Part shown: in pieces, positions 10,658 to 27,344 of the stretch
How the letters are laid out: every line of letters begins with the position of its first letter
Numbering within the stretch: the first letter of the stretch is position 1
Source of the DNA: Nocardia sp. NPDC049220
Lineage (GTDB): Bacteria; Actinomycetota; Actinomycetes; Mycobacteriales; Mycobacteriaceae
Assembly (NCBI RefSeq): GCF_040647855.1
Contig: NZ_JBEZDA010000009.1
Location: 127,139 to 159,138 of the forward strand
DNA length: 32,000 bases
Direction: 5' to 3'
Program-made: the position numbers and the translations under genes
The notes under the pieces: model-generated
Seen by the model: the letters and a program-made list of their open reading frames with translations, nothing else
What the model was told of the DNA's origin: nothing
Databases searched by the model: none

Positions 10658-10660
10658 GCG

Positions 10661-13910: not shown

Positions 13911-14492
13911 ATGCAGTTGCGGGCAGTCGATCTCGACCGCACCGGTTTCCGCTCGGCGCTGGGCCGCTTCGCGTCGAGCGTCAACGTGATCTCGATGTGG
14001 GACGAGGAGGGCAGGCCTATCGGCATGACCGCCACAGCCTTCTCTTCGGTCTCCGACGATCCGTTGCTGGTGCTCATCTGCGTCAATCGTGCCACCCGGA
14101 CCTACGGGCACATCACGCGTGGCGGCCGGTTCGGCGTCAACATCCTCGGATCGGCGGCAGTTTCCATCTCGAACCACTGCGCGCGACCGGGCTCGGACAA
14201 GGGCTTGGCCCCGGAGTGGCTGGCGACGGACGCGGGCTGGTCATCGCCGGCCCTGAAGGATGCCCTTGCCTTCCTGGATTGCACGGTCGACAGCGATACC
14301 TCCGCAGGCACGCACGCAATCCTGGTCGGCAGAGTGACAGGGGTCGGCATTGCGACCCACGGCGAGCCGTTGCTGTACTTCGGCGGTCGCTACCAGCAGC
14401 TGCACCCCGAAGTGCAGTATCGGTCGCCGCTTCCGCTTCCGATCGCCTGGGACGGCGGGGACCCGGCGGTCCTGGCCGCCGTGGCCTCCTGA
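13911..14492 (+). CDS. flavin reductase family protein (HpaC-like NAD(P)H:flavin oxidoreductase)
   Basis: RBS GGGAGG 5 nt upstream. Flavin-reductase-domain blocks FRSALGRFASSVNVIS, GMTATAFSSVSDDPLLVLICVN and GRFGVNIL. Confidence 0.85.
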   Translation: MQLRAVDLDRTGFRSALGRFASSVNVISMWDEEGRPIGMTATAFSSVSDDPLLVLICVNRATRTYGHITRGGRFGVNILGSAAVSISNHCARPGSDKGLAPEWLATDAGWSSPALKDALAFLDCTVDSDTSAGTHAILVGRVTGVGIATHGEPLLYFGGRYQQLHPEVQYRSPLPLPIAWDGGDPAVLAAVAS

Positions 14493-14493
14493 G

Positions 14494-15090
14494 ATGGGAA
14501 CTGTGGGGCGACTGATCGTCGGCGTCACTGGTGCGTCCGCTCCGATCCTCGCAATCAGGACATTGCAAGCGCTGCGCGCGGCTGGGATCGAGACCCATCT
14601 CGTGATCTCCCGCGGAGCGCGCCGGACCCTCGCGCTGGAAGAGCCCTCATGGGGTCTGGCCGACGTCGAGGCGCTGGCCGACTTCGTGCACCGACCGGAG
14701 GACATGGCTGCGCCGATCGCCAGCGGTTCGTTTCGGGTGCGCGGCATGGTCGTCGTCCCATGCTCGATGAACACCCTTTCGCACATCGCCCACTCCGCCA
14801 CGCCGGACCTGGTGGCACGCGCCGCGGACGTGACCCTCAAGGAACGTCGCCGGCTCGTGCTGGTCCCACGGGAGAGCCCACTGCACCTCGGCCACCTGCG
14901 CAATCTGCTGGCGGCGACTGAACTCGGCGCGATCGCGGTGCCTCCGGTGATCGGGACCTATTACAAGCCGCAGACCGTGCTGGACGTGGTCGACCACGTG
15001 GTGGGGCGTGTCCTCGACCTCTTCGACATCGAGCACGATCTCGTCAACCGCTGGAATGGGCCGCCGCAGAGCCCCGGCGGTGGCATATGA
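14494..15090 (+). CDS. ubiX: UbiX-family flavin prenyltransferase (prFMN synthase)
   Basis: ATG at 14494, 1 nt after the flavin reductase stop. N-terminal LIVGVTGASAPILAIRTLQAL, then PCSMNTLSHIA and ERRRLVLVPRESPL, typical of UbiX/Pad1. Confidence 0.9.
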   Translation: MGTVGRLIVGVTGASAPILAIRTLQALRAAGIETHLVISRGARRTLALEEPSWGLADVEALADFVHRPEDMAAPIASGSFRVRGMVVVPCSMNTLSHIAHSATPDLVARAADVTLKERRRLVLVPRESPLHLGHLRNLLAATELGAIAVPPVIGTYYKPQTVLDVVDHVVGRVLDLFDIEHDLVNRWNGPPQSPGGGI

Positions 15091-15590
15091 CCGGGACACG
15101 ATTGTCCGCTGAACACATCGCCGACCTGACTGCCTCTGCTCAGCCTCGCGACCAGGCGCTGCTGCTGTTGTCGGTGGATGAAGCGGGGACGCCGCGGGTC
15201 GCCCTGCTGAGCCGCGCCGAGGTGCACGTCGTCGCTGACAGTCTGCTGCTGGTGGCGGTGTGGTCTGGCAGTCGATCGGCGACCAATATCGAGCGCTCCG
15301 GCGCGGCCACCTTGTTCTGGGTCGTGGACGGGGCCGCGGTGTCGGCCTCATTGCGGTGTGCCGGTAGCAGGCCCCTCGCCGCGGCGCCATCGGGCGAGCT
15401 GGCAGAACGCGCGCTGCGCGCGCTCACTCTTCGGGTTGTGGATGTGCGTGTGGACGAGGTCGGTTATGCGGAGCTGACCGCGCCCCTGATGTTTGCGGTC
15501 CACGAACCGGAGGAGATAATGTCCCGCTGGGAGGATGTCGCACGGCGCCTCGGTGCCGTTGCGCTGGGCCTCCAGGACGGTTCCGATTAG
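15087..15590 (+). CDS. hypothetical protein, PNPOx-like (FMN-binding split-barrel) by pattern
   Basis: ATGA start/stop overlap with ubiX at 15087-15090. The pattern LLLLSVDEAGTPRVALLS..EVHVV.DSLLLVAVWSGSRSATNIERSGAATLFWVVDG resembles pyridoxamine-5'-phosphate-oxidase-family proteins. The functional assignment is tentative. Confidence 0.65.
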   Translation: MTGTRLSAEHIADLTASAQPRDQALLLLSVDEAGTPRVALLSRAEVHVVADSLLLVAVWSGSRSATNIERSGAATLFWVVDGAAVSASLRCAGSRPLAAAPSGELAERALRALTLRVVDVRVDEVGYAELTAPLMFAVHEPEEIMSRWEDVARRLGAVALGLQDGSD

Positions 15591-15606
15591 AGGGGGGTGG
15601 TGACTG

Positions 15607-16158
15607 ATGGACGACGGAGCACTGCGGGCGTATGCGACCTGGTCGGACATCGGGGCGAGCCAACGGGCGACCGAGTTCCGCTCCTACACGTTCAACATCG
15701 CCGAAGCGCGCTACGTGATGCGTCGGGTCACTCGGATCATCAACGAGGAAGCCAAGAAACGCGGTTTCGATCCGCTGCAACACCAGGCATTGCTGCAAAC
15801 CTACGGCATCCGTGACGGTGAGCAACTGACTATCAGTGGGCTCGGCGAGCGACTCGATGTTCCCGCGGCCTTCGCCTCACGGCTGGTCCGTAAGCTCGAG
15901 AGCGAGGGTTACGTCACCCGCATGCATTCCGAGCGGGACAAGCGAGTCACCTTCGTCCAGGCCACAGACGCCGGCGTGCAGGTGCTGCGTGAAATCGACG
16001 AGCAAGTACATCGCCACGTGGCCTACTTCCAGCATTCCCTCAGCGAACATCAGCGCATCGCAGCGTTGTCGATTTTCGCGTTCTACGTGGGGATCGACGC
16101 GGAGTCGCCGATCGCCGAGGCGCTGCGCGAGGGTCGCATCCAACCGGAGAACGTCTGA
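15607..16158 (+). CDS. MarR family transcriptional regulator
   Basis: Winged-HTH block LTISGLGERLDVPAAFASRLVRKLESEGYVTRMHSERDKRVTFVQATDAG. Lies 16 nt after the previous stop, with AGGGGGGTGG as RBS. Confidence 0.85.
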   Translation: MDDGALRAYATWSDIGASQRATEFRSYTFNIAEARYVMRRVTRIINEEAKKRGFDPLQHQALLQTYGIRDGEQLTISGLGERLDVPAAFASRLVRKLESEGYVTRMHSERDKRVTFVQATDAGVQVLREIDEQVHRHVAYFQHSLSEHQRIAALSIFAFYVGIDAESPIAEALREGRIQPENV

Positions 16159-16244
16159 TTGCTGCCCTGGGCGCGAGTTCGCCCTGGTGTATGTGGTGAG
16201 CCGGGTCCGTTCCGGACAGCGAGCGCAGCACAGCAACTGGCCAA

Positions 16245-16279
16245 AGTACTTGACTTGAGTCTAGTACTGAAGTTAGCGT
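16245..16279 (+). promoter_or_regulatory. 24-bp near-palindrome (operator candidate) overlapping a putative promoter (-35 TTGACT, -10 TAGCGT)
   Basis: AGTACTTGACTT|GAGTCTAGTACT at 16245-16268 matches its reverse complement at 20 of 24 positions. TTGACT at 16251-16256, 17-nt spacer, TAGCGT at 16274-16279. About 60 nt upstream of the SBP ATG and 87 nt downstream of the marR stop. Confidence 0.45.
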
Positions 16280-16331
16280 CTTCTCTCATTAGTGAGGCGT
16301 GTTACACGCCCAGCATGAGGAGAGGTACGCA

Positions 16332-17369
16332 ATGGAGCACCGAGGACCCACTGGGCCGTTCGGCAGGCTCGCGTCGCGGGGAATCCTGACGCGGCGACGC
16401 GCTCTGGCCCTCGTGGGCGCAGCCCTGGTTCCGGCACTCGCGGCCTGTGGGAGCGGATCGTCGGGCACGTCCGGTCCATCCGACACAGTGCGAGTCGCGA
16501 TCGCGCCCACCGGCACCGCGTTGCCGGTCGTCGTCGCCGACAAACAGGGCTTCTTCAAGGCGCAGGGCCTGAAGGTCACCTTCCAGGTATCGAACGTCTC
16601 GATCTCGGACCAGCTCGCGACGCTCGGCAGGCAGTTCGACGTCGCGATGGGCACGCAGCCGGCGCTGATCACCGCTGCCGCCCATCGGATCGCGCTCGCC
16701 AACATCACCGGCGGCGCGATCGATTCGAAGGCCAACCCGCAGACCGACTTCGTCGCCTCGGCCGCCAGCGGCATCACGTCCTACGCCGAGCTGGAGGGGA
16801 AGAACCTCGGGGCGCTCTCGCTCACCGGCAACATCCACTACGCGGTGCTGAACGCGGCCAAACAGGCTGGTGCGCCGTTGGACAAGGCCAATTGGGTCGT
16901 CGGTACGGTGCCGCAGTTGCCGGACACCCTTCGGGCGGGCCGGGCCGACGGCATCGAGGAGATCGAGCCGTTCGCGAGCATGACGGTCGCCAACGGTGGA
17001 GTCTCACTCGGTTCGCCGTTCCGCTCGCTCGGCGACGAGGCGTTCCTCGGTATCTTCCTCGCGTCCAAGGGCTGGGCGGATGCCAACGAGGAGACGGTAC
17101 TGAAGTTCAACACCGCACTGGCCCAGGCCGCGGACTGGATCACGGCGAACCAGGCGGATGCCCTGGAGCTGATGGGCACGTACACGGGTGCCAGCAAGGC
17201 GGTACTCGCCAAGACCCGGATCCCGGACTATAGGTTCCAGACGACCGCGGCCGATCTCGCGTCGGTGCAGGGCGCCGACACCGAGACCTGGATCGAGCTG
17301 CTCCGGGAGTTCGGGAATTTCAAGGGTCGCGTGAGTCCCGCCGACGTCCTGCCGGGGTGGGCGAAATGA
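16332..17369 (+). CDS. ABC transporter substrate-binding lipoprotein (NMT1/THI5-like, NitT/TauT-type) with Tat-type signal
   Basis: ATG at 16332 preceded by AGGAGAGG. Signal region LTRRRALALVGAALVPALAAC has a twin-arginine motif plus the lipobox LAAC. The mature part resembles the NMT1/SsuA-like periplasmic binding fold. Confidence 0.85.
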   Translation: MEHRGPTGPFGRLASRGILTRRRALALVGAALVPALAACGSGSSGTSGPSDTVRVAIAPTGTALPVVVADKQGFFKAQGLKVTFQVSNVSISDQLATLGRQFDVAMGTQPALITAAAHRIALANITGGAIDSKANPQTDFVASAASGITSYAELEGKNLGALSLTGNIHYAVLNAAKQAGAPLDKANWVVGTVPQLPDTLRAGRADGIEEIEPFASMTVANGGVSLGSPFRSLGDEAFLGIFLASKGWADANEETVLKFNTALAQAADWITANQADALELMGTYTGASKAVLAKTRIPDYRFQTTAADLASVQGADTETWIELLREFGNFKGRVSPADVLPGWAK

Positions 17370-18094
17370 CCCGGCCGGCCGATGTCATCCGCAAATGGGA
17401 GGCGCACTTTCCGCGCGAGGAGCTGGAAACACTCGCGAAGGCCGGCTACGGTAACCGGCTCGGCTTCGGGTCCCGCCCCGCGCTGCTGGTCGTCGACGCA
17501 ACCTACAGCTTCTGTGGCCCCGAGCCACTGCCCATACTCGACGCGATCGAGGTCAACCGGCGCTCCTGCGGTGACCGGGCGTGGGCGGCGCTCGGACCGA
17601 TCCGCGAGCTGCTGACCGCCGCCCGGGCCGCGGCGGTGCCGATCGTGTTCAGCACGATGCGAGATCCCGCCAGTCCCGCGTACGAGCCGGGATTGTGGGG
17701 TGCCAAGAACACCCGCGGTGTCGAGGACGGTGGCACGGGCGGCGACAGTAGGGACAACGAGGTACTCGACGAGATCGCGCCGCGGGCGGGTGAACTGGTG
17801 CTTGCCAAGGACAAGCCGAGTATCTTCGCCGGCACCGGGCTCGCGGCGTATCTGATCGCCCGGGGGGTCGATTCCCTGATCGTATGCGGCGGCACATCGA
17901 GCGGCTGTGTTTACGCGACCGCGGTCGACGGCTTTTCCCATAACTACCGGGTGACGGTCGCGCGGGAAGCCTCGTTCGACCGGGTCGACTCCCCGCATTG
18001 GGCGGCCCTGCTGGACATCGACATGAAGTACGGCGACGTAGTCGACACGGGCGAGGTGCTCGAACACCTCGCCACGCTGCGGCCCGGCGCATGA
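17366..18094 (+). CDS. isochorismatase-family cysteine hydrolase (amidase-type), paralogue 1
   Basis: ATGA overlap with the SBP stop. D-K-C triad contexts LLVVDATYSF, LAKDKPSIFAGT and LIVCGGTSSGCVYATAVDG (N-carbamoylsarcosine amidase/nicotinamidase-like). Confidence 0.85.
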   Translation: MTRPADVIRKWEAHFPREELETLAKAGYGNRLGFGSRPALLVVDATYSFCGPEPLPILDAIEVNRRSCGDRAWAALGPIRELLTAARAAAVPIVFSTMRDPASPAYEPGLWGAKNTRGVEDGGTGGDSRDNEVLDEIAPRAGELVLAKDKPSIFAGTGLAAYLIARGVDSLIVCGGTSSGCVYATAVDGFSHNYRVTVAREASFDRVDSPHWAALLDIDMKYGDVVDTGEVLEHLATLRPGA

Positions 18095-18116
18095 GCCACG
18101 GACGAGAGGAACAACC

Positions 18117-18824
18117 ATGACAGACCCTGTACAGGTCCCGGACTGGCGGACGGTCTTTCCCGAAGAGGAACGCCGTATCTACGAGGCCGCGCGCTTCGGC
18201 GGCCTGCTCGAGCCGGGCAGCCGGCCTGCGATCATGGTGATCGACGTGGTCGAGTCCTTCGCCGGCCGCGCCGGCGAGGGCATCCTCGACGCTATCGAGC
18301 AATACCGGACGAGCTGTGGGCCGGCGGGCGAGGGGGCGATCGACGCGATCGCAACGCTGCTCGATCTGGCCCGCGAGACCGACGTGCCGGTCGTGTATAC
18401 CAAGGGCAGTGTCGTCGACAAGTTTCACGCGGGCGACTCGGTCAAGGGCACCCGGCCGGACGAGATCGCGAGCGTCTACGGCGCCCCGATCGTCTCGCGG
18501 ATCGCGCCGTTGGAGTCGGAGTACGTACTGGAGAAGACCAAGGCATCGGCGTTCTTCGGCACTCCGATGACGTCTTTCCTGCAGCGACACGGCGTGGACA
18601 CTCTGCTGGTCTGCGGCACGTCGACCAGTGGGTGCGTGCGTGCGTCGGTCGTCGACGCGTTCTCACACGGCTACCGCGTCTGGGTGGTGGAGGATTGCGT
18701 TTTCGACCGCGCACCGACCTCGCACGCGGTGAACCTCTACGAGATGAACCAAAAGTACGCTTCGGTCGTTACGTTGGACGACGCTTGCCAGTACTTACGC
18801 GTAGTTGCGAAGGGGCAAGCATGA
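18117..18824 (+). CDS. isochorismatase-family cysteine hydrolase (amidase-type), paralogue 2
   Basis: RBS GAGAGGA 6 nt upstream. Triad contexts IMVIDVVESF, LEKTKASAFFGT and LLVCGTSTSGCVRASVVDA. Confidence 0.85.
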   Translation: MTDPVQVPDWRTVFPEEERRIYEAARFGGLLEPGSRPAIMVIDVVESFAGRAGEGILDAIEQYRTSCGPAGEGAIDAIATLLDLARETDVPVVYTKGSVVDKFHAGDSVKGTRPDEIASVYGAPIVSRIAPLESEYVLEKTKASAFFGTPMTSFLQRHGVDTLLVCGTSTSGCVRASVVDAFSHGYRVWVVEDCVFDRAPTSHAVNLYEMNQKYASVVTLDDACQYLRVVAKGQA

Positions 18825-19672
18825 GTGCCCCGAGACACCGCGTCACTGCGACCAATTCGATGTCGGTCGCGGATTCGGCAACCACCGGAGTGACCATCGA
18901 GTGTCGCGATGTGTGCATCGACGTCCCGACCGACACCGGTCCACGACGGATCGTCGAGGGACTGGACCTGCGGATCGAGGCGGGCGAGTTCGTGTGTGTG
19001 CTCGGTGCTTCCGGCGTCGGCAAGACGACGGTGCTCCGGGCACTCGGCGGACTGGTCGCCCCGACCGAGGGCTCGGTGCTCGAGATCGACGGCATCCCGG
19101 TGGACGGCCCGCCGTCCGCCGGCGTGATGGTGTTCCAGAACTACGCGTCGTCGTTGCTGCCGTGGCGGTCCGCCCTCGCCAACGTCGAACTGCCGTTGGA
19201 GAGTACGGTCCGCGATCGTGGCGTGCGCCGGGAACGGGCGATGGAGGCGCTGCGACTCGTCGGGCTTGCCGACCGGCATGGCGCTTACCCCGCACAGCTG
19301 TCGGGCGGCATGCAGCAACGGGTGCAGATCGCGCGGGCGCTGGTCGTTCGGCCGCGGGTATTGTTCATGGACGAACCCTTCGGCGCACTCGACGCCATGA
19401 CCAGGGAAGGCCTGCAAGACGAGCTGCTGCGCATCCACGCGCGGACCTCGATGACGGTCGTATTCATCACCCACGACATCGAGGAGGCCGCCTACCTGGG
19501 TACCCGCCTCGTCGTGCTCGAGGGTAGGCCGTCGGCAGTGGGGCACGACCTGCGCAGCACGCTCGGGCCGGACCGGGACCAGGTCGCCACCAAGGAGTCC
19601 GCCGAGTACCTGCGACTGCGGCACAAGCTGTACGCCGCAGTGCGAGGCGAGCGGAAGGGTGCGGCACGGTGA
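18821..19672 (+). CDS. ABC transporter ATP-binding protein
   Basis: ATGA overlap with the previous stop. Walker A GASGVGKTT, signature LSGGMQQR, Walker B LFMDEPFGALD. Confidence 0.9.
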   Translation: MSAPRHRVTATNSMSVADSATTGVTIECRDVCIDVPTDTGPRRIVEGLDLRIEAGEFVCVLGASGVGKTTVLRALGGLVAPTEGSVLEIDGIPVDGPPSAGVMVFQNYASSLLPWRSALANVELPLESTVRDRGVRRERAMEALRLVGLADRHGAYPAQLSGGMQQRVQIARALVVRPRVLFMDEPFGALDAMTREGLQDELLRIHARTSMTVVFITHDIEEAAYLGTRLVVLEGRPSAVGHDLRSTLGPDRDQVATKESAEYLRLRHKLYAAVRGERKGAAR

Positions 19673-20493
19673 GTGCTCAGATCGCGGTGGCCCCCTCGGA
19701 CGGGGCCGCGCCGGAGCAGCCGGCTCGCCGCCATCGGCGGCGGTGGCTCAACCTGCCGGGGCTCGGGCTTTTGGTGGCGCTGGCCGTGCTGTGGGAGGTG
19801 CTGGCTCGCACGGTTCTCCGCTCCTTCGAGAACTTCGTGCCGACCTCGGACATTGTCCGCGCGTTCGGTGAGCTGGCCGGGCAAGGCGACTTGGCCGCGC
19901 AGATCGGGCACACCCTCAGCGTCACCATGATCGGCTGGGTGGTGTCCACCGCGGTCGGTGTGGTGATCGGCGTCTGGCTGGGGCTGTCCGGAGTCGCCTG
20001 GCGCTGGTCGATGGCCAGCGTCGAGGTCCTCCGTTCGCTACCGTCCATCGCGTTCGTGCCGATCGCGCTCCTCGTCTTCGGGTTCTCCCAGGAAATGGAG
20101 CTCGTGTTGATCATGTACGTGTGCCTGTGGCCGGTGCTGATCGCCACGATCGAGGGCGTACGCGGGGTACATCCGGGCCTCATCGACACCGCCCGAACGT
20201 TCAACCTCGGCCGGGTACAGGTGTGGCGCAGCATCGTGCTGCCCGCAGCCGTGTCGCGGATCCTCGTCGGCGTCCGGCTGGCTCTCGCCCTCGCGGTCTC
20301 CCTCGCCGTGATCGCCGAGATGCTCGGCAACCCCGAGGGCCTGGGCTTCGGGATCGTGTTCGTGCAGCGCGGTTTTCAGCCGGGGCAGGTCTTCGCCTAC
20401 TTGTTCACGATCGGGCTGGTCGGCTGGGCGCTGAACGCGCTGTTCACCGCCGCGGTGCGGCTGCTTGCGCCGCGGTTTGCGGGGTCGCTGTGA
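19669..20493 (+). CDS. ABC transporter permease (BPD_transp_1-type)
   Basis: GTGA overlap with the ATPase stop. Multiple hydrophobic helices and an EAA-like loop ARTFNLGRVQVWRSIVLPAA. Confidence 0.85.
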   Translation: MSAQIAVAPSDGAAPEQPARRHRRRWLNLPGLGLLVALAVLWEVLARTVLRSFENFVPTSDIVRAFGELAGQGDLAAQIGHTLSVTMIGWVVSTAVGVVIGVWLGLSGVAWRWSMASVEVLRSLPSIAFVPIALLVFGFSQEMELVLIMYVCLWPVLIATIEGVRGVHPGLIDTARTFNLGRVQVWRSIVLPAAVSRILVGVRLALALAVSLAVIAEMLGNPEGLGFGIVFVQRGFQPGQVFAYLFTIGLVGWALNALFTAAVRLLAPRFAGSL

Positions 20494-21266
20494 GTAGCGC
20501 GGCACCGGCGCGCCAGCGGCGGCGCACGTCCGGGATCCCGCCACTTCGCGGATTGCTGCCACTGGTCGTGCTGCTCGTACTGTGGCAGCTGCTGGTCTCG
20601 CCCGACGATCCCTACTTCCCCCCACCGAGCCGTTGGTTCGCGGCGCTCGGCGATCTCGGTACGGCGGGCGCACTGTGGCCATCGATATTCACCACCCTGC
20701 TGAGTTTCGTGCTCGCTCTGGTGATCGCCGTCGTGGTCGGGGCTGCGCTGGGTGTCGGCGTGGGTCGCGCTCCCGTCGCCGACCGAGTCCTCGGTCCGAC
20801 CTTCGAGTTCATCCGGACGATCCCGGCCGGCGCGATGGTGCCGGTCGCGGTGTTGGTCATCGGCTACACGCGCTCGATGACGGTCGCCGTCGTGGTCGTG
20901 ACGTCACTGTGGCCGGTGCTGTTGGCCACTCGCGCGGCTGCTCGCGAGCTCGATGTCGCTCGGCTGGAAGCGGCTCGGGTAATGCATCTGGGCCGGTTCG
21001 AGACCTTCCGCAAGATCGTGCTGCCCTCCCTGAGCTCGAGTATCGTGCTGGGCCTGCAGATCACCGCCCCGTTGGCACTGATCATCACCATCGTCGTCGA
21101 GCTGATCACCCAGGTCGACGGGATCGGCAAGCAGATCAGCCTCGCCCAGTCCCAGTTCCAGAGTGAGACGGTGTACGGGCTGGTGGCTGTCACCTGTCTG
21201 ATCGGGCTCGCTGTCAACCTGGTGGCCGCGGTCGTTGCCCGCGCTACCCGTCGCTATGTCGCCTGA
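20490..21266 (+). CDS. ABC transporter permease (second, paralogous)
   Basis: GTG at 20490 overlaps the previous stop as GTGA. EAA-like loop ARVMHLGRFETFRKIVLPSL. In frame with the longer track ORF 20121..21266, whose N-terminus is an Arg-rich overlap artefact. Confidence 0.85.
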   Translation: MSSAAPARQRRRTSGIPPLRGLLPLVVLLVLWQLLVSPDDPYFPPPSRWFAALGDLGTAGALWPSIFTTLLSFVLALVIAVVVGAALGVGVGRAPVADRVLGPTFEFIRTIPAGAMVPVAVLVIGYTRSMTVAVVVVTSLWPVLLATRAAARELDVARLEAARVMHLGRFETFRKIVLPSLSSSIVLGLQITAPLALIITIVVELITQVDGIGKQISLAQSQFQSETVYGLVAVTCLIGLAVNLVAAVVARATRRYVA

Positions 21267-21282
21267 GTCGAGGAAGGACCAC

Positions 21283-22851
21283 ATGACCTACCCGTACGAG
21301 GACTTTCGTGACTACCTGAATTCACTGGACGAGTCGGGCCTGCTCGTGCGGGTCACCGCACCGGTGGACAAGGATACCGAGTTGGTGCCGCTGGTCCGCC
21401 TACAGTTCCGCGGACTGCCGGAGGAGAAGCGCCGGGCCTTCCTCTTCGAGAATGTGACCGATAGCCGGGGCAGGCGGTTCGACGGCGGAGTGGCGATCGC
21501 CACCTTCGCAGCGTCGCGTCGCGTCTACGCCCATGCACTCGGTGCCGATCTGGACCGGCTCGGTGAGGTCTGGCAGCGGGCGCTGTCCGAGCCGATCGAG
21601 CCCGAGATCGTCGAGACCGGGCCGTGCAAGGAGCGGATTCTGCTCGGGGATGAGATCGTGTCCTCGGGTGGGGTCGACGCGTTTCCCCATCCCATCTCGA
21701 CGCCCGGCTTCGACAACGCGCCATTCCTGACCTCGCCGTACTGGGTCACCAAGGACCCGGAGACCGGCGAGTACAACGTCGGAACCTACCGCGGCATGAT
21801 CAAGGGGCCGGGTGTGGTGGGCCTGCAGATGGACACCCCGAGTCAGCACATCGCCATCCACCTTCGCAAGGCGCGGAAGCTGGGGAAACCGCTCGAGGTC
21901 GCGGTGGTACTCGGCGCCGTCCCGGCGGTCGGCCTCGCCAGCGTGCAGAAAGTGCCGTTCGGGGTCAGCGAGTACGCGGTCGCGGGCGGGCTGATGGGCC
22001 GCCCACTGGAGGTCGTACGCTGCGAGACAGTGGACCTGGAGGTTCCGGCCACGGCGGAGATCATCCTGGAGGGCCGGATCGACCCGACGCACCTGGAGCC
22101 GGAGGGCCCGTTCGGTGAGGCCAGCGGTTACATGGGCCCGCGCACGTTGTCGCCGGTGCTGGAGCTGACCGCGATCACGCATCGCGAGCGGCCAGTGGTG
22201 CAGGCGTTCATCAGCGAGTTTCCGCCCAGTGAGTCCACGCTGATGCGCAAGATCGGGTTCGAGAACGTCTATCGGCGGTTCTTGCAGCAGTCCTGCAACA
22301 TCTCCTCGGTCGTCGACGTGACCTTCTACGAGATGGCAACCTGCAACATGTTCTTCGTCATCCGCATGAAGGACCCGTCACCGGGCCAGGCGTGGCAGGC
22401 GCTGTACGCCGCCTCGGGGTACGAGCCGTCGATGGGTAAGTACATCGTGGCGGTGGACGACGATGTCGATCCGTCCGATCTCGGGTCGGTGGTGTGGGCA
22501 CTGAGTTTCCGCACGCAGCCCGCGCATGACGTGAAGGTTCTCGGGGACAAGTTGCCCCGGCTCGACCCGTCGATGCCACTGCCGCTCGGTGCGGATCCGG
22601 TGGCGAGCGGTTCGGCCATGCTCATCGACGCGACCCGGTCGCACCCGTACCCGCCGACGTCACTGCCCGCTGAACCGTACATGGACGCCGCAGTGCGGCG
22701 CTGGAACGACCTCGGCCTCGGACCACTCGATCTCGCCGCCCCCGTCCACGGCTATGAACTAGGAGATTGGACGGAGGAGAACCGCGAAGAGGCGGCATTG
22801 GCCGTACTGGGCCGCTATCTGGAGACCGGTGCGAAGTTGCACGGCGCGTGA
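21283..22851 (+). CDS. UbiD-family (prFMN-dependent) reversible decarboxylase
   Basis: ATG at 21283 preceded by GAGGAAGGA. N-terminus YEDFRDYLNSLDESGLLVRVTAPVDKDTEL and the block EGPFGEASGYMG (compare EGPFGDHTGYY in UbiD enzymes). About 522 aa. Confidence 0.9.
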   Translation: MTYPYEDFRDYLNSLDESGLLVRVTAPVDKDTELVPLVRLQFRGLPEEKRRAFLFENVTDSRGRRFDGGVAIATFAASRRVYAHALGADLDRLGEVWQRALSEPIEPEIVETGPCKERILLGDEIVSSGGVDAFPHPISTPGFDNAPFLTSPYWVTKDPETGEYNVGTYRGMIKGPGVVGLQMDTPSQHIAIHLRKARKLGKPLEVAVVLGAVPAVGLASVQKVPFGVSEYAVAGGLMGRPLEVVRCETVDLEVPATAEIILEGRIDPTHLEPEGPFGEASGYMGPRTLSPVLELTAITHRERPVVQAFISEFPPSESTLMRKIGFENVYRRFLQQSCNISSVVDVTFYEMATCNMFFVIRMKDPSPGQAWQALYAASGYEPSMGKYIVAVDDDVDPSDLGSVVWALSFRTQPAHDVKVLGDKLPRLDPSMPLPLGADPVASGSAMLIDATRSHPYPPTSLPAEPYMDAAVRRWNDLGLGPLDLAAPVHGYELGDWTEENREEAALAVLGRYLETGAKLHGA

Positions 22852-22894
22852 GTCCGCGCGGGGGCCGGGCGTGAGCGCGGCCCCCGCGCGGACT
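22851..22894. terminator. perfect 17-bp GC-rich inverted repeat between convergent genes (bidirectional terminator candidate)
   Basis: AGTCCGCGCGGGGGCCG at 22851-22867 and CGGCCCCCGCGCGGACT at 22878-22894, with a 10-nt loop. It fills almost the entire 45-nt gap between the UbiD stop (22851) and the CN-hydrolase stop (22897). No U-tract. Confidence 0.6.
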
Positions 22895-22896
22895 GT

Positions 22897-23715
22897 TCAC
22901 GCTGGCGTCATCGTGAACCGGCGCAGCCGAAGCGCGGGGTTGGTGTCGCGGACCGCGACGACTGCCGCCGGGTCGAGGTCTGCGGTGATGAGCCCCTCAT
23001 GCTGTCCGGCGTGGGCAAGCACCCGGCCCACTGGGTCCACGATCATGCTGGCGCCGACCCCGACCGGCGGTGTGTGGTCGGCGGCAACCAAGTAGCAGGT
23101 GTTCTCGATCGCCCGGGCCCGGCACAGGGTGGTCCAGTGATCTTCCTTGAGCGGTCCCGCCACCCACTCGGCGGGGACGGCGAGCAGATCGGCACCCGCA
23201 TCGACCAGCCGCCGGCTGATTTCCGGGAAGCGCAGGTCGTAGCAGGTCTGCAGACCCACGGTGAGGTCTCCCAGCCCGATGGTCCCTGGCGCGCCGATAT
23301 CGCCGGGACGCATCCAATCGGATTCGCGCGCGCCGTAGGCGTCGTAGAGGTGGATCTTGCGGTAGACCACTAGTGGGGACCGGCCATCCGTCGCGACCAG
23401 GGTGTTGGCGACGCGTCGGTCCGCAGGGTCGGTCGCTGCCTCGACCATGCCTGCCATGAGCAGCAGATCGTGTTCGGCGGCCAGCGCGCGGATCGCCCGG
23501 ACAAATGGGCCATCGAGCGGTTGGGCTCCGGCCAGAAACGCCTCGTCGAGCACCGGTGCGAACCACGAACTGTATTCGGGCAACACCAGCGCCCGCGCGC
23601 CGGCGGCTGCCGCCTCCCTGGCGAACCGCGCGATGCGATCCAGATTCGCGTCCGGATCGGTGGTCGGCGCGAACTGGGCGGCCGCGACGCGGACAGCGCG
23701 CTCAGGCTGGGTCAT
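22897..23715 (-). CDS. carbon-nitrogen hydrolase (nitrilase superfamily) amidase
   Basis: RBS AGGAG 7 nt upstream of ATG 23715. E-K-C triad contexts ALVLPEYS, VVYRKIHLYD and GLQTCYDLRFPE. Confidence 0.85.
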   Translation of the reverse strand: MTQPERAVRVAAAQFAPTTDPDANLDRIARFAREAAAAGARALVLPEYSSWFAPVLDEAFLAGAQPLDGPFVRAIRALAAEHDLLLMAGMVEAATDPADRRVANTLVATDGRSPLVVYRKIHLYDAYGARESDWMRPGDIGAPGTIGLGDLTVGLQTCYDLRFPEISRRLVDAGADLLAVPAEWVAGPLKEDHWTTLCRARAIENTCYLVAADHTPPVGVGASMIVDPVGRVLAHAGQHEGLITADLDPAAVVAVRDTNPALRLRRFTMTPA

Positions 23716-23775
23716 GGGAGTGCTCCTGACGATCGTGACGGCGACGTTGACGAATACAGCATGACATAGATGAAG

Positions 23776-23803
23776 TATCTAAACACTTGACTTAGCTTAG
23801 ATA
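23776..23803. promoter_or_regulatory. inverted repeat TATCTAA-N14-TTAGATA within the AT-rich divergent control region (23716-23879)
   Basis: TATCTAA at 23776-23782 and TTAGATA at 23797-23803. The spacer contains ACTTGACTT (23785-23793), identical to 16248-16256 upstream of the transporter operon. The region is markedly AT-rich relative to its flanks. Confidence 0.4.
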
Positions 23804-23879
23804 TTTTGGTTGCCTGTTCTTGCTGAATATTGATCTCGGGCGGGCAGGACCTGCTCATTGGAATGAGGAGGGACGGGCG

Positions 23880-25364
23880 ATGACCCGGTCTGGCAAGGAC
23901 TACATCTCGGGCCTGAAGGACGGGCGTCGGGTGTTCATCGACGGCGAGTACGTCTCCGACGTCGCCGCGCACCCGGCTTTCGCCGGTGCCGTCGCGTCGA
24001 TAGCGAACGTTTACGACAACGCCAACGCGCCCGCGAACCGCGAGGTCATGACGTACCCGTCGCCTACCACCGGCGATCCGGTGAATCTGTCGTTCCTGAT
24101 TCCGCGCAGCGAGGACGACCTGCGGCGCAGGCGCACCGCGTTGCGTCTCTCGGCCGAGACAACCGCGGGACTGATGGGCCGGGGTCCCGAGCACGTGGCA
24201 GGGTTCCTCGCCGGCTGGGCCGGGCGGGCGGACGTCTTCGCCGAGGGTGGGGATCGGTTCGCCGCGAACATCACGGCGTTCTACGAGCACGTGCGTGACA
24301 ACGACCTCTACTGCAGTTACGCAATCGTGCCGCCGCAAATCGACCGCAGCAAGCCCGCTCACCAGCAGGCTGATCCGCACCTCTATGCCGGTGTCAAAGA
24401 AGAGCGCGAGGATGGCATTGTGCTGGCCGGCGCGCAGATGCTCGGCACCGGTGCGGCGATCTCGGACTACCTGATCCTCTCCTGCATCGTGCCGTTGCGG
24501 GAGGGAGACGAAAACTACGCGATTTCGGTTGCCATCCCGCTCGGCGCGCAGGGGCTGAAAGTCTACTCGCGGCGCAGCTACGCCGAAGGTGCTACCAGCG
24601 TCTTCGATTACCCGCTGGCCAGCCAGTTCGACGAGACCGATGCGCTGATCGTGCTCGACGACGTCTTCGTGCCCTGGGAGCGGGTCTTCGTCTTCCGCAA
24701 CCGCGATGTCCTTTCCGGTTCCTGGAACCGCACTCCCGCGCACCTGCTGGGCAACAACCAGGCACAGATCCGCTTCTCGGTGAAGCTCGACCTGCTCACC
24801 GGGCTGGCGCAACGCGTCGCGGCGATGAATGGCTCGGACACGTTCCCGCCCGTCCGCGGCACGCTCGGCCAGTTGGCCGCGCACGCGGCCATGGTCAGCG
24901 GGCTGGTCGCGGCGCAGGAGCAGGAGTGCGAGATCGATGAGCATGGCGTGGCCTGGCCCGCCCGCACGCCCAACTTCGCCATCCAGACCCTGCAGTCGGA
25001 GTTCTACCCGAAGTTGCTGCAGATGGTCCGCGAGCTGTGCGGCGGCGGTGTCATCCAGCTGCCGTCCGACATCCGCGACTACGACAACCCAGAGGCCGCG
25101 GCCGACCTGGAGCGTTACGTCCAGTCACCGGGCTGGAGCAGTGTTGAGCGGGTCAAACTGCTCAAGTTGGTCTGGGATCTGGTCGGCTCGGAATTCGCGG
25201 GCCGGCACGAGCAGTACGAGATGTTCTACGCCGGGGCCCCGTTCCTCGTCCGCACACGGATGGCGCAGGTCTACGATTTCGCCGCTGCGGAGGCATTGGT
25301 GGACCGGGTGATGAGTACCTACGACCGGTCCGGCCGGATCGCATCGGACGGATCGGCGGCCTGA
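23880..25364 (+). CDS. HpaB-type (4-hydroxyphenylacetate 3-monooxygenase family) flavin-dependent oxygenase component
   Basis: ATG at 23880 preceded by GAGGAGGGA. N-terminus MTRSGKDYISGLKDGRRVFIDGEYVSDVAAHPAF is typical of the HpaB/PvcC family. About 494 aa. Confidence 0.9.
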   Translation: MTRSGKDYISGLKDGRRVFIDGEYVSDVAAHPAFAGAVASIANVYDNANAPANREVMTYPSPTTGDPVNLSFLIPRSEDDLRRRRTALRLSAETTAGLMGRGPEHVAGFLAGWAGRADVFAEGGDRFAANITAFYEHVRDNDLYCSYAIVPPQIDRSKPAHQQADPHLYAGVKEEREDGIVLAGAQMLGTGAAISDYLILSCIVPLREGDENYAISVAIPLGAQGLKVYSRRSYAEGATSVFDYPLASQFDETDALIVLDDVFVPWERVFVFRNRDVLSGSWNRTPAHLLGNNQAQIRFSVKLDLLTGLAQRVAAMNGSDTFPPVRGTLGQLAAHAAMVSGLVAAQEQECEIDEHGVAWPARTPNFAIQTLQSEFYPKLLQMVRELCGGGVIQLPSDIRDYDNPEAAADLERYVQSPGWSSVERVKLLKLVWDLVGSEFAGRHEQYEMFYAGAPFLVRTRMAQVYDFAAAEALVDRVMSTYDRSGRIASDGSAA

Positions 25365-26293
25365 TGGCAGGATTGCGAATCGGGGTACCGGACCTCGTCT
25401 CCCCGTCCTATTTCCCCGCGATCGCCGCGGTCGAACTGGGCCTGCTGGCCGACGAGGGGGTCGAAGGCACGATCGAGCTGGTCTTCCCTGTCACCGATGC
25501 GGCTACGTCGCTGCGCGACGGCCGCTTGGACCTGCTGGCCGGGGCCGCGCATGCCCCGCTCTACGCGTTCCCCGGCTGGCGGAACGCCCGGCTGGTCGCC
25601 GCGATCTCCCGCAACACGTACTGGTTCCTCGTGGTGCGGTCGGATCTCGGCGTCGCGCGTGGCGACCTGAAGGCACTACTCGACCTGCGGATCGGTGCTG
25701 CTCCCGGAGTCGACGAGGGACTGCGGCAGTTGCTCGTCCGCTCCGGTGTGGACCTGGCCGGGCAGGGCCTGCGGATCGGACCGATACCGGGGGTCGCGCC
25801 GGGGACGATATCGTTCGGCGTTGCGGCCGCCGAGGCGCTGGCCGACGGCCGGGTGGACGCCTTCTGGGCCAACGGGATGGGCGCAGAGGTCGCGGAGTCG
25901 ACCGGGACCGGAACAGTGGTCGTCGACGCTCGCCGCGACGGAGGCCTCGGCTCGAGACTCACTTTCCCCGCGATCTCCGCCACTCAGGACCTGATCGCCC
26001 GGGACCCGGCGGCGGTCGCCGCAGTCGTGCGCGCACTCGGCCGGGCCCAGCAGGTCCTTGCCGATGACCCGGAGCGGGCCACCGAGGTCGGCCGTCGGCT
26101 CTTCCCGCCGCGCGAGGCCGGGCTGATCGCCGAACTCGTCCGTCGGGACGCGCCGTGGTACGGGACGGAGATTTCCCCCGAGGCGGTCGCCGGCCTCAAC
26201 GCTTTCGGCCGGCACGCCGGCCTGCTGGAGCATGACGTCGCGTTCGATGACGTCGTGGTCACCGATTTCTTCTCGTCCGGAACATCCCGGTGA
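25364..26293 (+). CDS. leaderless NMT1/THI5-like substrate-binding-fold protein (cytoplasmic)
   Basis: The ATG shares its A with the hpaB-type TGA (TGATG). It starts directly with MAGLRIGVPDLVSPSYFPAIAA, a binding-protein first strand, with no signal peptide or lipobox. Compare the exported paralogue-type SBP at 16332. Confidence 0.8.
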   Translation: MAGLRIGVPDLVSPSYFPAIAAVELGLLADEGVEGTIELVFPVTDAATSLRDGRLDLLAGAAHAPLYAFPGWRNARLVAAISRNTYWFLVVRSDLGVARGDLKALLDLRIGAAPGVDEGLRQLLVRSGVDLAGQGLRIGPIPGVAPGTISFGVAAAEALADGRVDAFWANGMGAEVAESTGTGTVVVDARRDGGLGSRLTFPAISATQDLIARDPAAVAAVVRALGRAQQVLADDPERATEVGRRLFPPREAGLIAELVRRDAPWYGTEISPEAVAGLNAFGRHAGLLEHDVAFDDVVVTDFFSSGTSR

Positions 26294-26316
26294 GGCCCGA
26301 CCCGACAGGAGCCGTC

Positions 26317-27003
26317 ATGTCCGCACCACTTGTCCTCGCGATCGCGGGAACGGACGAGACGCTCGTCTTGACCGACTTCGACCTGGTTGTCGCCGGATAT
26401 ACCGGGCGCGACGAGGCAGCGGTGCGCGAACACATCGACGAACTCGCCGCGATCGGAGTGCCCGAGCCGGACTCGGTGCCCGCTTTCTACCCGCTCGACC
26501 GCTCGCTGGCCGTCGTCGCCGACGAGATCACCGTGACCGGGGCCGGGACTTCCGGTGAGGTGGAACCGTTGCTGGTCCGGACCGGGGGCCGGCTCTATCT
26601 CGGCGTCGCGTCCGATCACACGGACCGCGAGCTGGAGCGGACGAGCGTCGCCGGCTCGAAGGCCGCCTGCCCCAAGCCGCTCGGCCCGACGGTGCTGCCG
26701 CTGCCCGCCGACCTCGACTGGGATTCCGTCGCAGTGCGGTCCAGCGTCGACGGCCGGCCCTACCAGGACGGGTACTTGCGAGCGCTGCGCATCCCGACGG
26801 AGGTGCTCGCCCTGTACCTCGCGGCGGGAGATGACGGCCGCGACGTGGTCCTGCTCGGCGGGACTGTTCCGGTGATCGGTGGGGATTTCGTCATGGGTGC
26901 CTCCTGGGAGATGACTCTGCGGCCCGCCGGCGGTCCGGCACTCGAACTGAATTATCGCGTCGCCGTCGTCGATGTCGGCACTGCCGAAGGAGCAAAAGCA
27001 TGA
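26317..27003 (+). CDS. uncharacterised protein, DUF2848-like
   Basis: ATG at 26317 preceded by AGGAG. The alternative GTG at 26290 overlaps the previous stop. Blocks LVVAGYTGRDEAAVREHIDELAAIGVP, TSGEVE and GVASDHTDRELE match my recollection of DUF2848 proteins (unverified). Confidence 0.75.
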   Translation: MSAPLVLAIAGTDETLVLTDFDLVVAGYTGRDEAAVREHIDELAAIGVPEPDSVPAFYPLDRSLAVVADEITVTGAGTSGEVEPLLVRTGGRLYLGVASDHTDRELERTSVAGSKAACPKPLGPTVLPLPADLDWDSVAVRSSVDGRPYQDGYLRALRIPTEVLALYLAAGDDGRDVVLLGGTVPVIGGDFVMGASWEMTLRPAGGPALELNYRVAVVDVGTAEGAKA

Positions 27004-27344
27004 CCAAGCCCGAGATCGAGTTCACTCCGGTCGAGAAGACGGACTTCACCCTGTGCAGCGGGCACGTGCCCGGACTGACCGAGCGGATCCTCGCGACCGA
27101 CCCGGAATCCGGGACCGCGACTCGGATCCTGCGGTTCGCACCCAATACCGACACCACTCCGAACGGCGTGCAGGTCCACGACTTCTGGGAGGAGGTCTAC
27201 ATCCTGGAGGGCGAGATGACGGATCTCCGGCTCGGCCAGATCTTTTCCGCCGGCCAGTACGCGTGCCGGCCGCCGGGCATGGCGCACGGGCCCTGGACGA
27301 GCGGTCCCCAGGGCTGCCTCACCTTCGAGGTCCGCTACCGGTGA
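27000..27344 (+). CDS. cupin domain protein
   Basis: ATGA overlap with the previous stop. Cupin motifs VQVHDFWEEVYILEGE and YACRPPGMAHGP. 114 aa. Confidence 0.8.
   Translation: MTKPEIEFTPVEKTDFTLCSGHVPGLTERILATDPESGTATRILRFAPNTDTTPNGVQVHDFWEEVYILEGEMTDLRLGQIFSAGQYACRPPGMAHGPWTSGPQGCLTFEVRYR

Follow-up and report, generated by a model that had tools for sequence, protein, structure and literature searches.

A conserved Nocardia island linking a widespread DUF2848 core to a UbiD-containing feeder module, with a probable role in the catabolism of N-containing aromatic acids or amides

The DNA analysed here is a stretch of 32,000 nucleotides from Nocardia sp. NPDC049220 (contig NZ_JBEZDA010000009.1, positions 127,139 to 159,138; hereafter the window), with a G+C content of about 68%. 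Between positions 13,911 and 27,344 of the window, 16 genes form an island which is probably catabolic and would act on an N-containing aromatic acid or amide. This island combines two layers. The first is a conserved core, comprising an HpaB-family oxygenase, a flavin reductase, a small cupin, a DUF2848 protein and an amidase, which occurs in Actinobacteria and Proteobacteria, mostly without UbiD. The second is a feeder module present in a subset of loci only: UbiD, UbiX and a PhdC-like protein, an ATP-binding cassette (ABC) importer and a pair of isochorismatase-family hydrolases (Iso1 and Iso2). We describe the island through its gene families, their catalytic motifs, their co-conservation in relatives and a motif found upstream of its operons.

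The core is defined by a metagenome scan seeded on DUF2848, in which partner genes were counted over 32 loci of at least 8 kb. The cupin accompanies DUF2848 in 27 of these loci, HpaB and the CN_hydrolase in 25 each and the flavin reductase, alongside HpaB, in 24, whereas the substrate-binding protein (SBP)-fold protein is found in seven, UbiD in five and an isochorismatase in four. The dominant operon consists of CN_hydrolase, DUF2848, HpaB, cupin and flavin reductase genes; one example also carries a GntR gene and an APC-family permease gene. An Arthrobacter isolate carries the core operon as well. On a Thioclava plasmid (Alphaproteobacteria; locus L124, 4127-8666), reductase, HpaB, cupin, amidase and DUF2848 genes are found together, and an ‘amidase’ of about 460 amino acids replaces the CN_hydrolase. 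Pantoea (L122, 7971-11932) and Paraburkholderia (L123, 7941-9985) possess only DUF2848, an ‘amidase’ and a transporter. The proteins annotated ‘amidase’ and paired with DUF2848 in Proteobacteria measure 440-460 amino acids. Since the amidase family is apparently swapped non-orthologously while the step is kept, amide hydrolysis appears integral to the pathway.

Other loci show the cassette with different partners. In Georgenia, a single-component FAD_binding_3 hydroxylase replaces UbiD and HpaB, next to the same cassette, MarR and SBP/ABC/isochorismatase genes. A second contig of Nocardia sp. NPDC049190 (L037, 8281-10989) bears a cassette of SBP-fold protein, CN_hydrolase, DUF2848 and Cupin_7 genes without UbiD or HpaB. 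It is divergent from genes for Rieske oxygenase alpha, beta and ferredoxin components and for dihydrodipicolinate synthase (DHDPS)-like, ornithine cyclodeaminase (OCD)/mu-crystallin, aldehyde-dehydrogenase and glyoxalase proteins. At L035/L052, L050, L058 and L083, the core module encloses a UbiD gene from another clade, with about 30-35% identity. The first-pass annotation, made from the letters of the window, had proposed one catabolic system. The island is indeed coherent, but not a single indivisible unit: the core is widespread, and UbiD, importer and isochorismatases are an add-on in a minority of loci.

Two details of these loci may be mentioned. Many stand-alone DUF2848 proteins (e.g. 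P0243, P0244 and P0257) are named ‘4-hydroxyphenylacetate 3-monooxygenase’ by JGI; the name is misleading and is probably carried over from the adjacent HpaB gene or from fusions. The Pantoea locus also has a DUF4286 gene, and DUF4286 likewise lies beside UbiD in Streptomyces (L033).

The island recurs in related bacteria. The nearest public relative, Nocardia sp. NPDC049190 (L006), shares 98% identity in UbiD and about 95% at the DNA level. Pseudonocardia (L038) preserves a block of 12 genes with unchanged order (SBP, Iso, Iso, ATPase, two permeases, UbiD, convergent CN_hydrolase, HpaB, SBP-fold protein, DUF2848, cupin) at 77-92% amino-acid identity; the importer SBP is 79% identical, as is the CN_hydrolase, which occupies the same position. 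Rearranged versions are found in Amycolatopsis, Nitriliruptorales, a Burkholderiaceae metagenome-assembled genome, marine Rhodospirillaceae and Thermocrispum. Such a shuffled order is what selection for co-function predicts, not shared ancestry of the block. An HpaB orthologue (53-100% identical) lies within 10 kb of UbiD in 12 of the 16 genome loci with a UbiD of 69% identity or more, and in none of the 10 loci with a UbiD of 45-54% identity (mostly anaerobes and Thermoleophilia). MarR orthologues (43-64%) stand beside UbiD/HpaB genes in seven loci (L001, L007, L008, L011, L012, L035 and L040). The first-pass annotation had allowed that the three operons might not be co-conserved; they are, in other genera, and their adjacency is therefore not fortuitous.

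UbiD homologues of 66-75% identity also occur in loci of another type (L003 Alkalihalophilus pseudofirmus, L033 Streptomyces and L034). These loci hold two to three UbiD paralogues, together with short-chain dehydrogenase/reductase (SDR) and aldehyde dehydrogenase genes and TctABC or TRAP transporters, which suggests stepwise decarboxylation of polycarboxylated aromatic compounds.

Families were assigned to the 16 genes by profile searches against Pfam and NCBIfam (Table 1). The genes, families and coordinates of the first-pass annotation were borne out, with one correction in operon 1: reductase, UbiX and MarR stand, but the ‘PNPOx-like protein’ is instead a homologue of the maturase PhdC. 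The overlaps reported earlier are present in the sequence (ATGA at 17366 and 18821, GTGA at 19669 and 20490, and overlaps at 25364 and 27000). That at 27000 is an ATGA, and at 25364 the HpaB stop and the next start share 1 nt. Two further overlaps are a GTGA at 26290 and an ATGA at 15087, which joins the UbiX stop to the start of the PhdC-like gene. For UbiX itself, the most likely start is ATG 14494, 1 nt past the reductase stop. The gaps between the three transcription units measure 173 and 164 bp. A GC-rich, perfect 16-bp hairpin (22852-22893) exactly fills the 45 bp between the convergent stops of UbiD and CN_hydrolase and, judged by its position and form, looks like a bidirectional terminator; a simple T-tail terminator scan did not call it, there being no T-tail at this place. 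Between 13.9 and 27.3 kb, Pfam and NCBIfam showed no extradiol dioxygenase, aldolase or dehydrogenase domains, in agreement with the earlier remark that the hpa meta-cleavage set is absent.

Table 1 Genes and promoter-like sites of the island, with positions in the window
Feature	Position	Strand	Family match or sequence
NAD(P)H:flavin reductase (HpaC/RutF class)	13911-14492	+	PF01613 (Flavin_Reduct), E 1e-35
UbiX flavin prenyltransferase	14494-15090	+	NF004685 / PRK06029, 241.5 bits (cut-off 188)
PhdC-like protein, candidate prFMN oxidative maturase/helper, 167 aa	15087-15590	+	no Pfam match; phmmer to PhdC
MarR-family regulator	15607-16158	+	PF12802, PF01047
Tat-lipoprotein SBP, NitT/TauT-type ABC importer	16332-17369	+	PF09084, PF13379 (NMT1-type)
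Isochorismatase-family cysteine hydrolase 1 (Iso1, amidase)	17366-18094	+	PF00857
Isochorismatase-family cysteine hydrolase 2 (Iso2, amidase)	18117-18824	+	PF00857
ABC transporter ATPase	18821-19672	+	PF00005; nearest NCBIfam models are nitrate and taurine types
ABC permeases, two genes	19669-20493 and 20490-21266	+	PF00528 each
UbiD-family prFMN-dependent (de)carboxylase	21283-22851	+	UbiD_N, UbiD, UbiD_C
Nit1/Nit2-branch CN_hydrolase, omega-amidase-like	22897-23715	-	PF00795
HpaB-family oxygenase of two-component flavin monooxygenase	23880-25364	+	PF11794 (HpaB_N), PF03241 (HpaB)
Leaderless cytosolic SBP-fold (NMT1/THI5-like) protein	25364-26293	+	PF09084
DUF2848, divergent FAH-superfamily enzyme	26290-27003	+	PF11010
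Small Cupin_7 metalloprotein (dioxygenase or isomerase)	27000-27344	+	PF12973
Promoter/operator-like site, operon 1	13853-13883	+	ACTTGTCTC and palindrome TACTTG-TCT-CAAGTA; TTGTCT-17-TATACT promoter-like
Promoter/operator-like site, operon 2	16248-16268	+	ACTTGACTT inside inverted repeat AGTACTTGACT..AGTCTAGTACT
Promoter/operator-like site, operon 3	23785-23806	+	ACTTGACTT; inverted repeat AAGTATCTAA..TTAGATATTT, left arm 23773-23782

UbiD, the enzyme of the prenylated flavin mononucleotide (prFMN) step, matches its three Pfam domains above their cut-offs and scores 261.5 with TIGR00148 (cut-off 244.85). The first-pass annotation had asked whether prFMN- and metal-binding residues might be missing: the N..R, H, E and E-x4-E motifs are all kept (NVGTYR165, SQH187, SEY229 and EGPFGE274) and align with chains 6h6x and 2idb (E. 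coli UbiD). The roles of the Asn, His and Glu ligands and of the Arg/E-x4-E network in this family are taken from the Fdc1 and HudA literature. The nearest PDB matches are 6h6x (E 1e-53), then E. coli UbiD, HudA (E 3e-39) and PhdA 6da6 (E 5e-36). Since these nearest solved relatives are distant, the island UbiD belongs, by sequence comparison, to an uncharacterised clade. Chain 6h6x we take to be the 2,5-furandicarboxylate decarboxylase HmfF.

Several assignments of UbiD were rejected. Similarity is too low for an orthologue of PhdA, HudA or HmfF. A phenolic-acid decarboxylase of the VdcBCD/BsdBCD type is also excluded, the VdcC model NF041204 yielding 226 bits against a cut-off of 650. As remarked in the first-pass annotation, the small D subunit of these systems is missing next to UbiD: there is no room for a VdcD-type gene there because the gaps measure only 16 and 45 bp, the latter filled by the hairpin, although small open reading frames (ORFs) elsewhere in the window were not searched for. 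A plasmid database search with UbiD returned only rhizobial homologues of about 40% identity. One of them, on a Neorhizobium petrolearium plasmid (L039, 2668-18109), lies amid subunits of a xanthine-dehydrogenase-family molybdenum hydroxylase, in an operon with an SBP-like gene; MarR, GntR, UbiX, thiamine pyrophosphate enzyme and TctC genes are nearby, and the context looks like N-heteroaromatic acid catabolism. Molybdenum hydroxylases of this family are found beside UbiD homologues in both Streptomyces and Neorhizobium.

The cofactor of UbiD would be supplied from operon 1. The cognate UbiX scores above its subfamily cut-off, and enzymes of this family make reduced prFMN. The following ORF of 167 amino acids matches PDB entries 9SRG/9NK0 (phmmer, E 1.5e-9). 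Entry 9SRG represents PhdC, which the phdABC operon of Mycolicibacterium fortuitum encodes as its prFMN maturase; Nocardia is reportedly where PhdC-like genes occur most often (PMC13040415). Residues E45 (equivalent to PhdC Glu47) and W148 (Trp138) are invariant. At the position of the Glu of the ExW motif, homologues carry Glu in Thermocrispum (EHW) and Pro in locus L034. We consider the product PhdC-like and a candidate prFMN maturase or helper; as a PhdC homologue it would make operon 1 a unit of cofactor supply plus regulator.

The two-component hydroxylase passes no curated equivalog model. The best NCBIfam matches of the reductase are HsaB and HpaC, all below cut-offs. HpaB is a genuine member of its family but falls below both equivalog cut-offs for 4-hydroxyphenylacetate (4-HPA) hydroxylase (325 vs 480 for TIGR02309 and 306 vs 885 for TIGR02310), and its matches in the PDB are distant ones only. 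In an alignment with Thermus HpaB (2yyk), R100 is kept while Y104 is replaced by His and H142 by Tyr; Arg100, Tyr104 and His142 of the Thermus enzyme are presumably the phenol-binding residues (structure 2yyj). A 4-HPA hydroxylase feeding an hpa meta-cleavage pathway was rejected on account of the missed equivalog cut-offs and the absence of extradiol dioxygenase, dehydrogenase, isomerase, hydratase and aldolase genes from 13.9-27.3 kb.

The hydrolases retain their catalytic residues. The Asp-Lys-Cys triad (D44, K150 and C181) is invariant in Iso1, Iso2 and three orthologues. Both score 37-51 bits with the RutB, BiuH and nicotinamidase equivalogs, below the cut-offs of 174-378. The best PDB matches of Iso2 are the putative isochorismatase 3ot4/3uao (E 2e-31) and also 4l07, followed by N-carbamoylsarcosine amidase; we assume that 3ot4/3uao and 4l07 are maleamate amidohydrolases (NicF). 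In the CN_hydrolase, the Glu-Lys-Cys triad (E47, K120 and C158) is present and invariant. This protein scores 229 bits with NF033621 (cut-off 355), and its best PDB chains are the nitrilase homologues 2w1v, 1f89 and 1ems. Homologues of the cassette type reach 96-122 bits against cut-offs of 249-355 (deaminated-glutathione amidase and YafV models). Both types are nearest to the Nit1/Nit2/YafV omega-amidase branch, and the core type is only 39-41% identical to the island CN_hydrolase. The three amidases of the first-pass annotation are thus amidase-type enzymes with intact triads, but they are not equivalent: Iso1 and Iso2 accompany the transporter and UbiD from locus to locus, and the amidase beside DUF2848 is a core feature throughout.

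For DUF2848, structure prediction extends what had been a bare DUF assignment. The AlphaFold2 model (pLDDT 95.6) adopts the FAH fold with a Foldseek probability of 1.00 and TM-scores of 0.54-0.67. The matches are fumarylpyruvate, maleylpyruvate and diketo-acid hydrolases, HpcE and FAHD1, and some DUF2848 homologues carry a weak PF01557 match. Residues E82, E84, D101, D104, K116 and K121 are invariant in 41 sequences (E-x-E ... D). In the model, the conserved acidic residues seem to sit at the usual position of the FAH metal site. The call of a DUF2848-like protein holds, and the model and Foldseek add that it is an FAH-fold enzyme.

Its partner, a Cupin_7 monocupin of 114 amino acids, has a single PDB match, ChrR (E 4e-4). 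Residues H60, E64, E65 and H96 lie in the canonical cupin motifs G56-x3-H60-x3-E64-x6-G71 and G85-x5-P91-x-G93-x2-H96; in some 50 homologues linked to such clusters, all four reach the conservation threshold, which was set at 95%. A 2-His-1-Glu metal site is predicted from these motifs.

Two SBP-related proteins are encoded, and both earlier descriptions were upheld by reading the N-termini. The importer SBP begins with TRRRALAL...ALAAC, i.e. a twin-arginine translocation (Tat) motif followed by an LAAC lipobox, whereas the protein starting at 25364 begins with MAGLRIGVPDL and has no leader. This leaderless protein has more than 4700 homologues of about 305-312 amino acids. Its alignment keeps about 60 invariant columns although the sequences share only 55-60% identity, which suggests an enzyme-like role rather than that of a passive binder. 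Its AlphaFold2 model (pLDDT 93) resembles thiamin SBP, Thi5, SsuA, DszB and PqqT (Foldseek TM-scores of 0.66-0.78 at 12-21% identity); these are generic NMT1-family matches and do not separate enzyme from binder. A sequence search of the PDB gave zero matches for either this protein or DUF2848. Sulfonate or desulfinase chemistry, as the DszB-like fold might imply, was set aside because no sulfur-related gene is present and the regulator is a MarR protein.

The three operons share an upstream motif. ACTTGWCTY has three matches in the window against 0.25 expected, all on the forward strand, and they are located 58, 84 and 95 bp upstream of the first codons, one per operon. Each lies in or beside an AT-rich inverted repeat (Table 1). 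Upstream of HpaB, AACACTTGAC is also found in Pseudonocardia (L038) and Streptomyces (L033), and similar AT-rich palindromes occur in Amycolatopsis and Thermocrispum promoters. The shared motif would represent similar promoters and/or a common operator and is no proof of MarR control. The island is probably under the control of its MarR protein. Far from the island, in or near an ORF without family match, the palindrome CAAGTACTTG at 2908-2917 shares the TACTTG half-site.

We infer the order of steps and the direction of the UbiD reaction as follows. The Tat-lipoprotein SBP and the ABC importer would take up an aromatic carboxamide or carboxylate. Iso1 and Iso2 would turn its amide group(s) into carboxylate(s), freeing ammonia. 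UbiD, with prFMN provided by UbiX and the PhdC-like helper of the island, would remove a ring carboxyl, and HpaB would hydroxylate the ring with reduced flavin from the island reductase. The cupin with its 2-His-1-Glu site, DUF2848 with its FAH fold and the Nit-type amidase would then open and trim the ring. Finally, the mono-amide of a dicarboxylic acid would be hydrolysed to ammonium and a central metabolite (2-oxoglutarate or a C4 dicarboxylate). The cytosolic SBP-fold protein may assist in this variant of the pathway. The sequence of uptake, C-N cleavage, (de)carboxylation, hydroxylation and cupin/DUF2848 processing sketched in the first-pass annotation is coherent with the intact motifs and the co-conservation.

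The substrate is likewise inferred. The carboxylate or carboxamide of an N-heteroaromatic ring, of pyrrole or pyridone type, is our best guess, compounds of the pyrrole-2-carboxylate type being the most attractive single candidate; the earlier guess of an N-heteroaromatic or amide-bearing aromatic carboxylate is still a reasonable one. An N-containing ring is suggested by the obligatory amidase of the omega-amidase branch, by the molybdenum hydroxylases and the DHDPS-like and aldehyde-dehydrogenase neighbours of related loci, and by a formamidase gene in a marine locus. Two cassette loci lie beside DHDPS-like and aldehyde-dehydrogenase genes, one of them also beside an OCD-like gene. We take this set to be typical of hydroxyproline and 2-oxoglutarate-semialdehyde metabolism.

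A more specific reading, which we rate as quite unlikely, is that the five-gene core converts pyrrole-2-carboxylate, or an N-heteroaromatic compound closely similar to it, to 2-oxoglutarate, a pathway to which genes have not been assigned. The pyrrole-2-carboxylate monooxygenase of Rhodococcus is listed with the group D two-component flavin monooxygenases, beside 4-HPA 3-hydroxylase (PMC6165268). Our literature search found no paper assigning a gene to this monooxygenase. The island resembles the pyrrole-2-carboxylate route of Rhodococcus and Arthrobacter, whose products are 2-oxoglutarate and ammonia, in enzyme class only. The stoichiometry fits exactly (C5H5NO2 + O + H2O = 2-oxoglutaramate). 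HpaB would yield a 5-hydroxy- or 5-oxo-pyrroline carboxylate, which the cupin and DUF2848, as a new tautomerase and a hydratase or ring-opening enzyme, would convert to 2-oxoglutaramate or its lactam, and the Nit-type amidase would perform the last step. The new UbiD clade and the two isochorismatase-type amidases could then funnel pyrrole or pyridone polycarboxylates or carboxamides into the core, such feeder compounds stemming from e.g. melanin, pyrroloquinoline quinone (PQQ) or antibiotics. The cytosolic THI5-like protein would act either as a new enzyme or in carrying intermediates.

Several observations weigh against the proposed pathway and its parts. Most core loci are without UbiD, ABC importer and isochorismatases, so that it is a minority of loci which ties the feeder to the core. 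Every enzyme remains under its equivalog cut-off; with NCBIfam run on every protein, only the generic UbiX and UbiD subfamily models were passed. UbiD is only distantly related to characterised decarboxylases, even at best (6h6x, E 1e-53; PA0254/HudA, E 3e-39). Since the pyrrole-2-carboxylate route needs neither a decarboxylase nor a dioxygenase, the roles given there to UbiD and the cupin are ad hoc. In the PhdC-like protein, the Glu of the ExW motif (PhdC Glu136, strictly conserved) appears as Ser146. The CN_hydrolase is disrupted, by rearrangement or partial deletion, in Nocardia sp. NPDC049190, a sister strain at 95% identity: region 23142-23648 has no collinear match in its locus (L006, 11840-12112), where an 82-bp piece is inverted and the surroundings are collinear. 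This strain carries another CN_hydrolase copy in its second cassette. Lastly, ACTTGWCTY was defined post hoc from the sites and overlaps a -35-like hexamer; it may reflect only similar promoters.

A carbocyclic substrate is a tentative alternative, which we hold to be unlikely. An amino- or hydroxy-benzoate or a benzamide would follow a gentisate- or aminosalicylate-like route: decarboxylation or deamidation, para or ortho hydroxylation by HpaB, ring cleavage by the cupin and C-C hydrolysis of an acylpyruvate-type product by DUF2848. Nitrogen would leave from an exocyclic amide or amine. A cupin dioxygenase followed by an FAH hydrolase is the standard pair of gentisate, homogentisate and 5-aminosalicylate catabolism, and the fumarylpyruvate, maleylpyruvate and diketo-acid hydrolases are the best folds for DUF2848. 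The 2-His-1-Glu site of the cupin and the classical action of HpaB enzymes on phenols agree with this, as does the gamma-resorcylate (gra) cluster, presumably of like logic (decarboxylase, two-component HpaB-type hydroxylase and MarR). However, the monocupin is unrelated by sequence to known ring-cleaving cupins, its single match being ChrR, and the phenol-binding Tyr and His of HpaB are swapped. Amidases of the Nit1/Nit2 branch hydrolyse amides, not enamines or anilines. Under a carbocyclic route, the cupin and the FAH-fold enzyme are well accounted for, the amidase less so. The molybdenum hydroxylases and hydroxyproline-type genes near relatives also point to N-heterocycles instead.

It is highly doubtful that the island consists of two independent neighbours, namely an operon for uptake, amide cleavage and UbiD, perhaps serving detoxification or salvage of an aromatic amide or acid, and an unrelated HpaB/DUF2848 module. 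In 27 of the 32 metagenome loci the core is without UbiD, and it also occurs with other hydroxylases, while UbiD homologues at 66-75% identity are found in other contexts (UbiD paralogues, SDR, aldehyde dehydrogenase, TctABC/TRAP). The flavin reductase of HpaB is, moreover, oddly encoded in operon 1 with UbiX. This same placement, which makes the reductase part of the UbiX operon, argues for one system, together with the single MarR of the island and the motif upstream of all three operons. HpaB lies within 10 kb in 12 of 16 loci with a UbiD of at least 69% identity, in different orders and phyla, and some core modules harbour a UbiD gene from another clade.

Salvage or turnover of a cofactor or vitamin (related to pyrimidine/thiamine, pyridoxine, nicotinamide or PQQ) is very improbable: both SBP-fold proteins are of the NMT1/THI5 family, whose solved members bind thiamin, hydroxymethylpyrimidine precursor, pyridoxal phosphate or PQQ, the isochorismatase family includes nicotinamidase and the island adjoins nadD, but nadD and rsfS are a housekeeping flank also present in L006, the island is placed elsewhere in other genera, no salvage kinase or phosphoribosyltransferase is present, the logic of oxygenase, FAH-fold enzyme and omega-amidase is degradative and the SBP-fold similarity is generic (12-21% identity).

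The island has housekeeping genes on both sides. Upstream of it are a proA-like gene, a pair of AAA and VWA genes and a DUF4272 gene; nadD and rsfS follow downstream. A link to nadD was set aside, as it belongs to the flank only. The upstream pair (9746-12088), in which the gene for a MadC-family VWA-domain protein comes after that for an AAA ATPase, is apparently unrelated to the island. Between 12001 and 13600 the G+C content dips to 0.55, compared with about 0.68 elsewhere; this stretch spans the DUF4272 gene (12250-12957, reverse strand) and an ORF of 237 amino acids without family match, and may be the edge of an insertion. Positions 13134-13755 are unmatched in the sister strain Nocardia sp. 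NPDC049190.

If the N-heteroaromatic pathway holds, it would give a role to DUF2848, to a new UbiD clade and to the large leaderless THI5/SsuA-like family with its more than 4700 homologues. Soil, rhizosphere and marine bacteria would then share a catabolic route that is undescribed in the literature searched; neither NCBIfam nor this literature revealed the gene-for-gene match to a characterised pathway that the first-pass annotation had considered, and no paper describing the pathway was found there. Were pyrrole-2-carboxylate or a pyridone carboxylate the substrate, a pathway that biochemistry has known since the 1990s would receive its genes. The combination of UbiD, UbiX, PhdC-like helper and downstream oxygenase in one regulon would also be a source of new (de)carboxylase biocatalysts. 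The novelty lies in the substrate and in the function of the DUF rather than in a new principle, catabolic islands being common.

Among known systems, phdABC of Mycolicibacterium fortuitum (PhdA, phenazine-1-carboxylate decarboxylase; PhdB, UbiX homologue; PhdC) is likewise actinobacterial and likewise unites UbiD with its own UbiX and a PhdC-type protein. In contrast to phdABC, the island has a UbiD distant from PhdA (6da6, E 5e-36), places UbiX and the PhdC homologue, with Ser for the ExW Glu, in a separate operon with flavin reductase and MarR, and adds transporter, amidases and a whole downstream oxygenase module. PA0254/HudA, the pyrrole-2-carboxylate decarboxylase of Pseudomonas aeruginosa, is a UbiD enzyme whose substrate is a small N-heteroaromatic acid, and it shares the catalytic Glu with the island UbiD. 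Counted by its offset from the conserved Glu, the neighbouring HudA Tyr279 would correspond to Ala in the island. Unlike the island UbiD, HudA is without linked oxygenase or ring-processing genes and is tied to virulence, not catabolism. We assume that HudA is paired with a MarR-type regulator, HudR, although the HudA paper searched mentions neither HudR nor MarR.

HmfF/HmfG (2,5-furandicarboxylate decarboxylase and UbiX) share the logic of a feeder decarboxylase, and the nearest solved UbiD relative, 6h6x/6h6v, is taken to be HmfF. HmfF His296, Arg304 and Arg331, presumably substrate-binding, correspond to Ser, Phe and Asn in the island UbiD in a hand-read alignment. Unlike the 5-hydroxymethylfurfural/furoate pathway, the island is without furoyl-CoA genes, and the downstream enzymes are entirely different. 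The gra cluster of Rhizobium sp. MTP-10005 unites a non-oxidative decarboxylase, a two-component HpaB-type hydroxylase with its reductase, MarR and ring-cleavage genes. Its decarboxylase is presumably of the amidohydrolase fold and followed by an intradiol dioxygenase and a maleylacetate reductase, with no amidases, DUF2848 or SBP-fold protein.

The nic and 2-hydroxypyridine (hpo) pathways end in a dicarboxylate mono-amide which is cut by NicF (isochorismatase-type) or HpoI (Nit-type). The island comes close to this end, its CN_hydrolase being Nit2-like and the best PDB matches of Iso2 being, as we take them, maleamate amidohydrolases. A canonical nic pathway was nevertheless rejected because no NicAB, NicC, NicX, NicD or NicE domains occur among the 16 island genes; HpoBCDF and HpoH are missing as well. 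Unlike in these pathways, hydroxylation is by HpaB, and any ring opening would be left to the cupin and DUF2848. The hpa operon differs in its HpaD/E/F/H/I genes, homologues of which are absent from the island, whose HpaB lies below the equivalogs with Tyr and His swapped, but both systems possess a two-component HpaB with reductase and an FAH-family enzyme (HpcE/HpaG). None of the proteins of the island is of a new kind; what is uncharacterised is their combination, which has a DUF at its centre and is conserved in different phyla.

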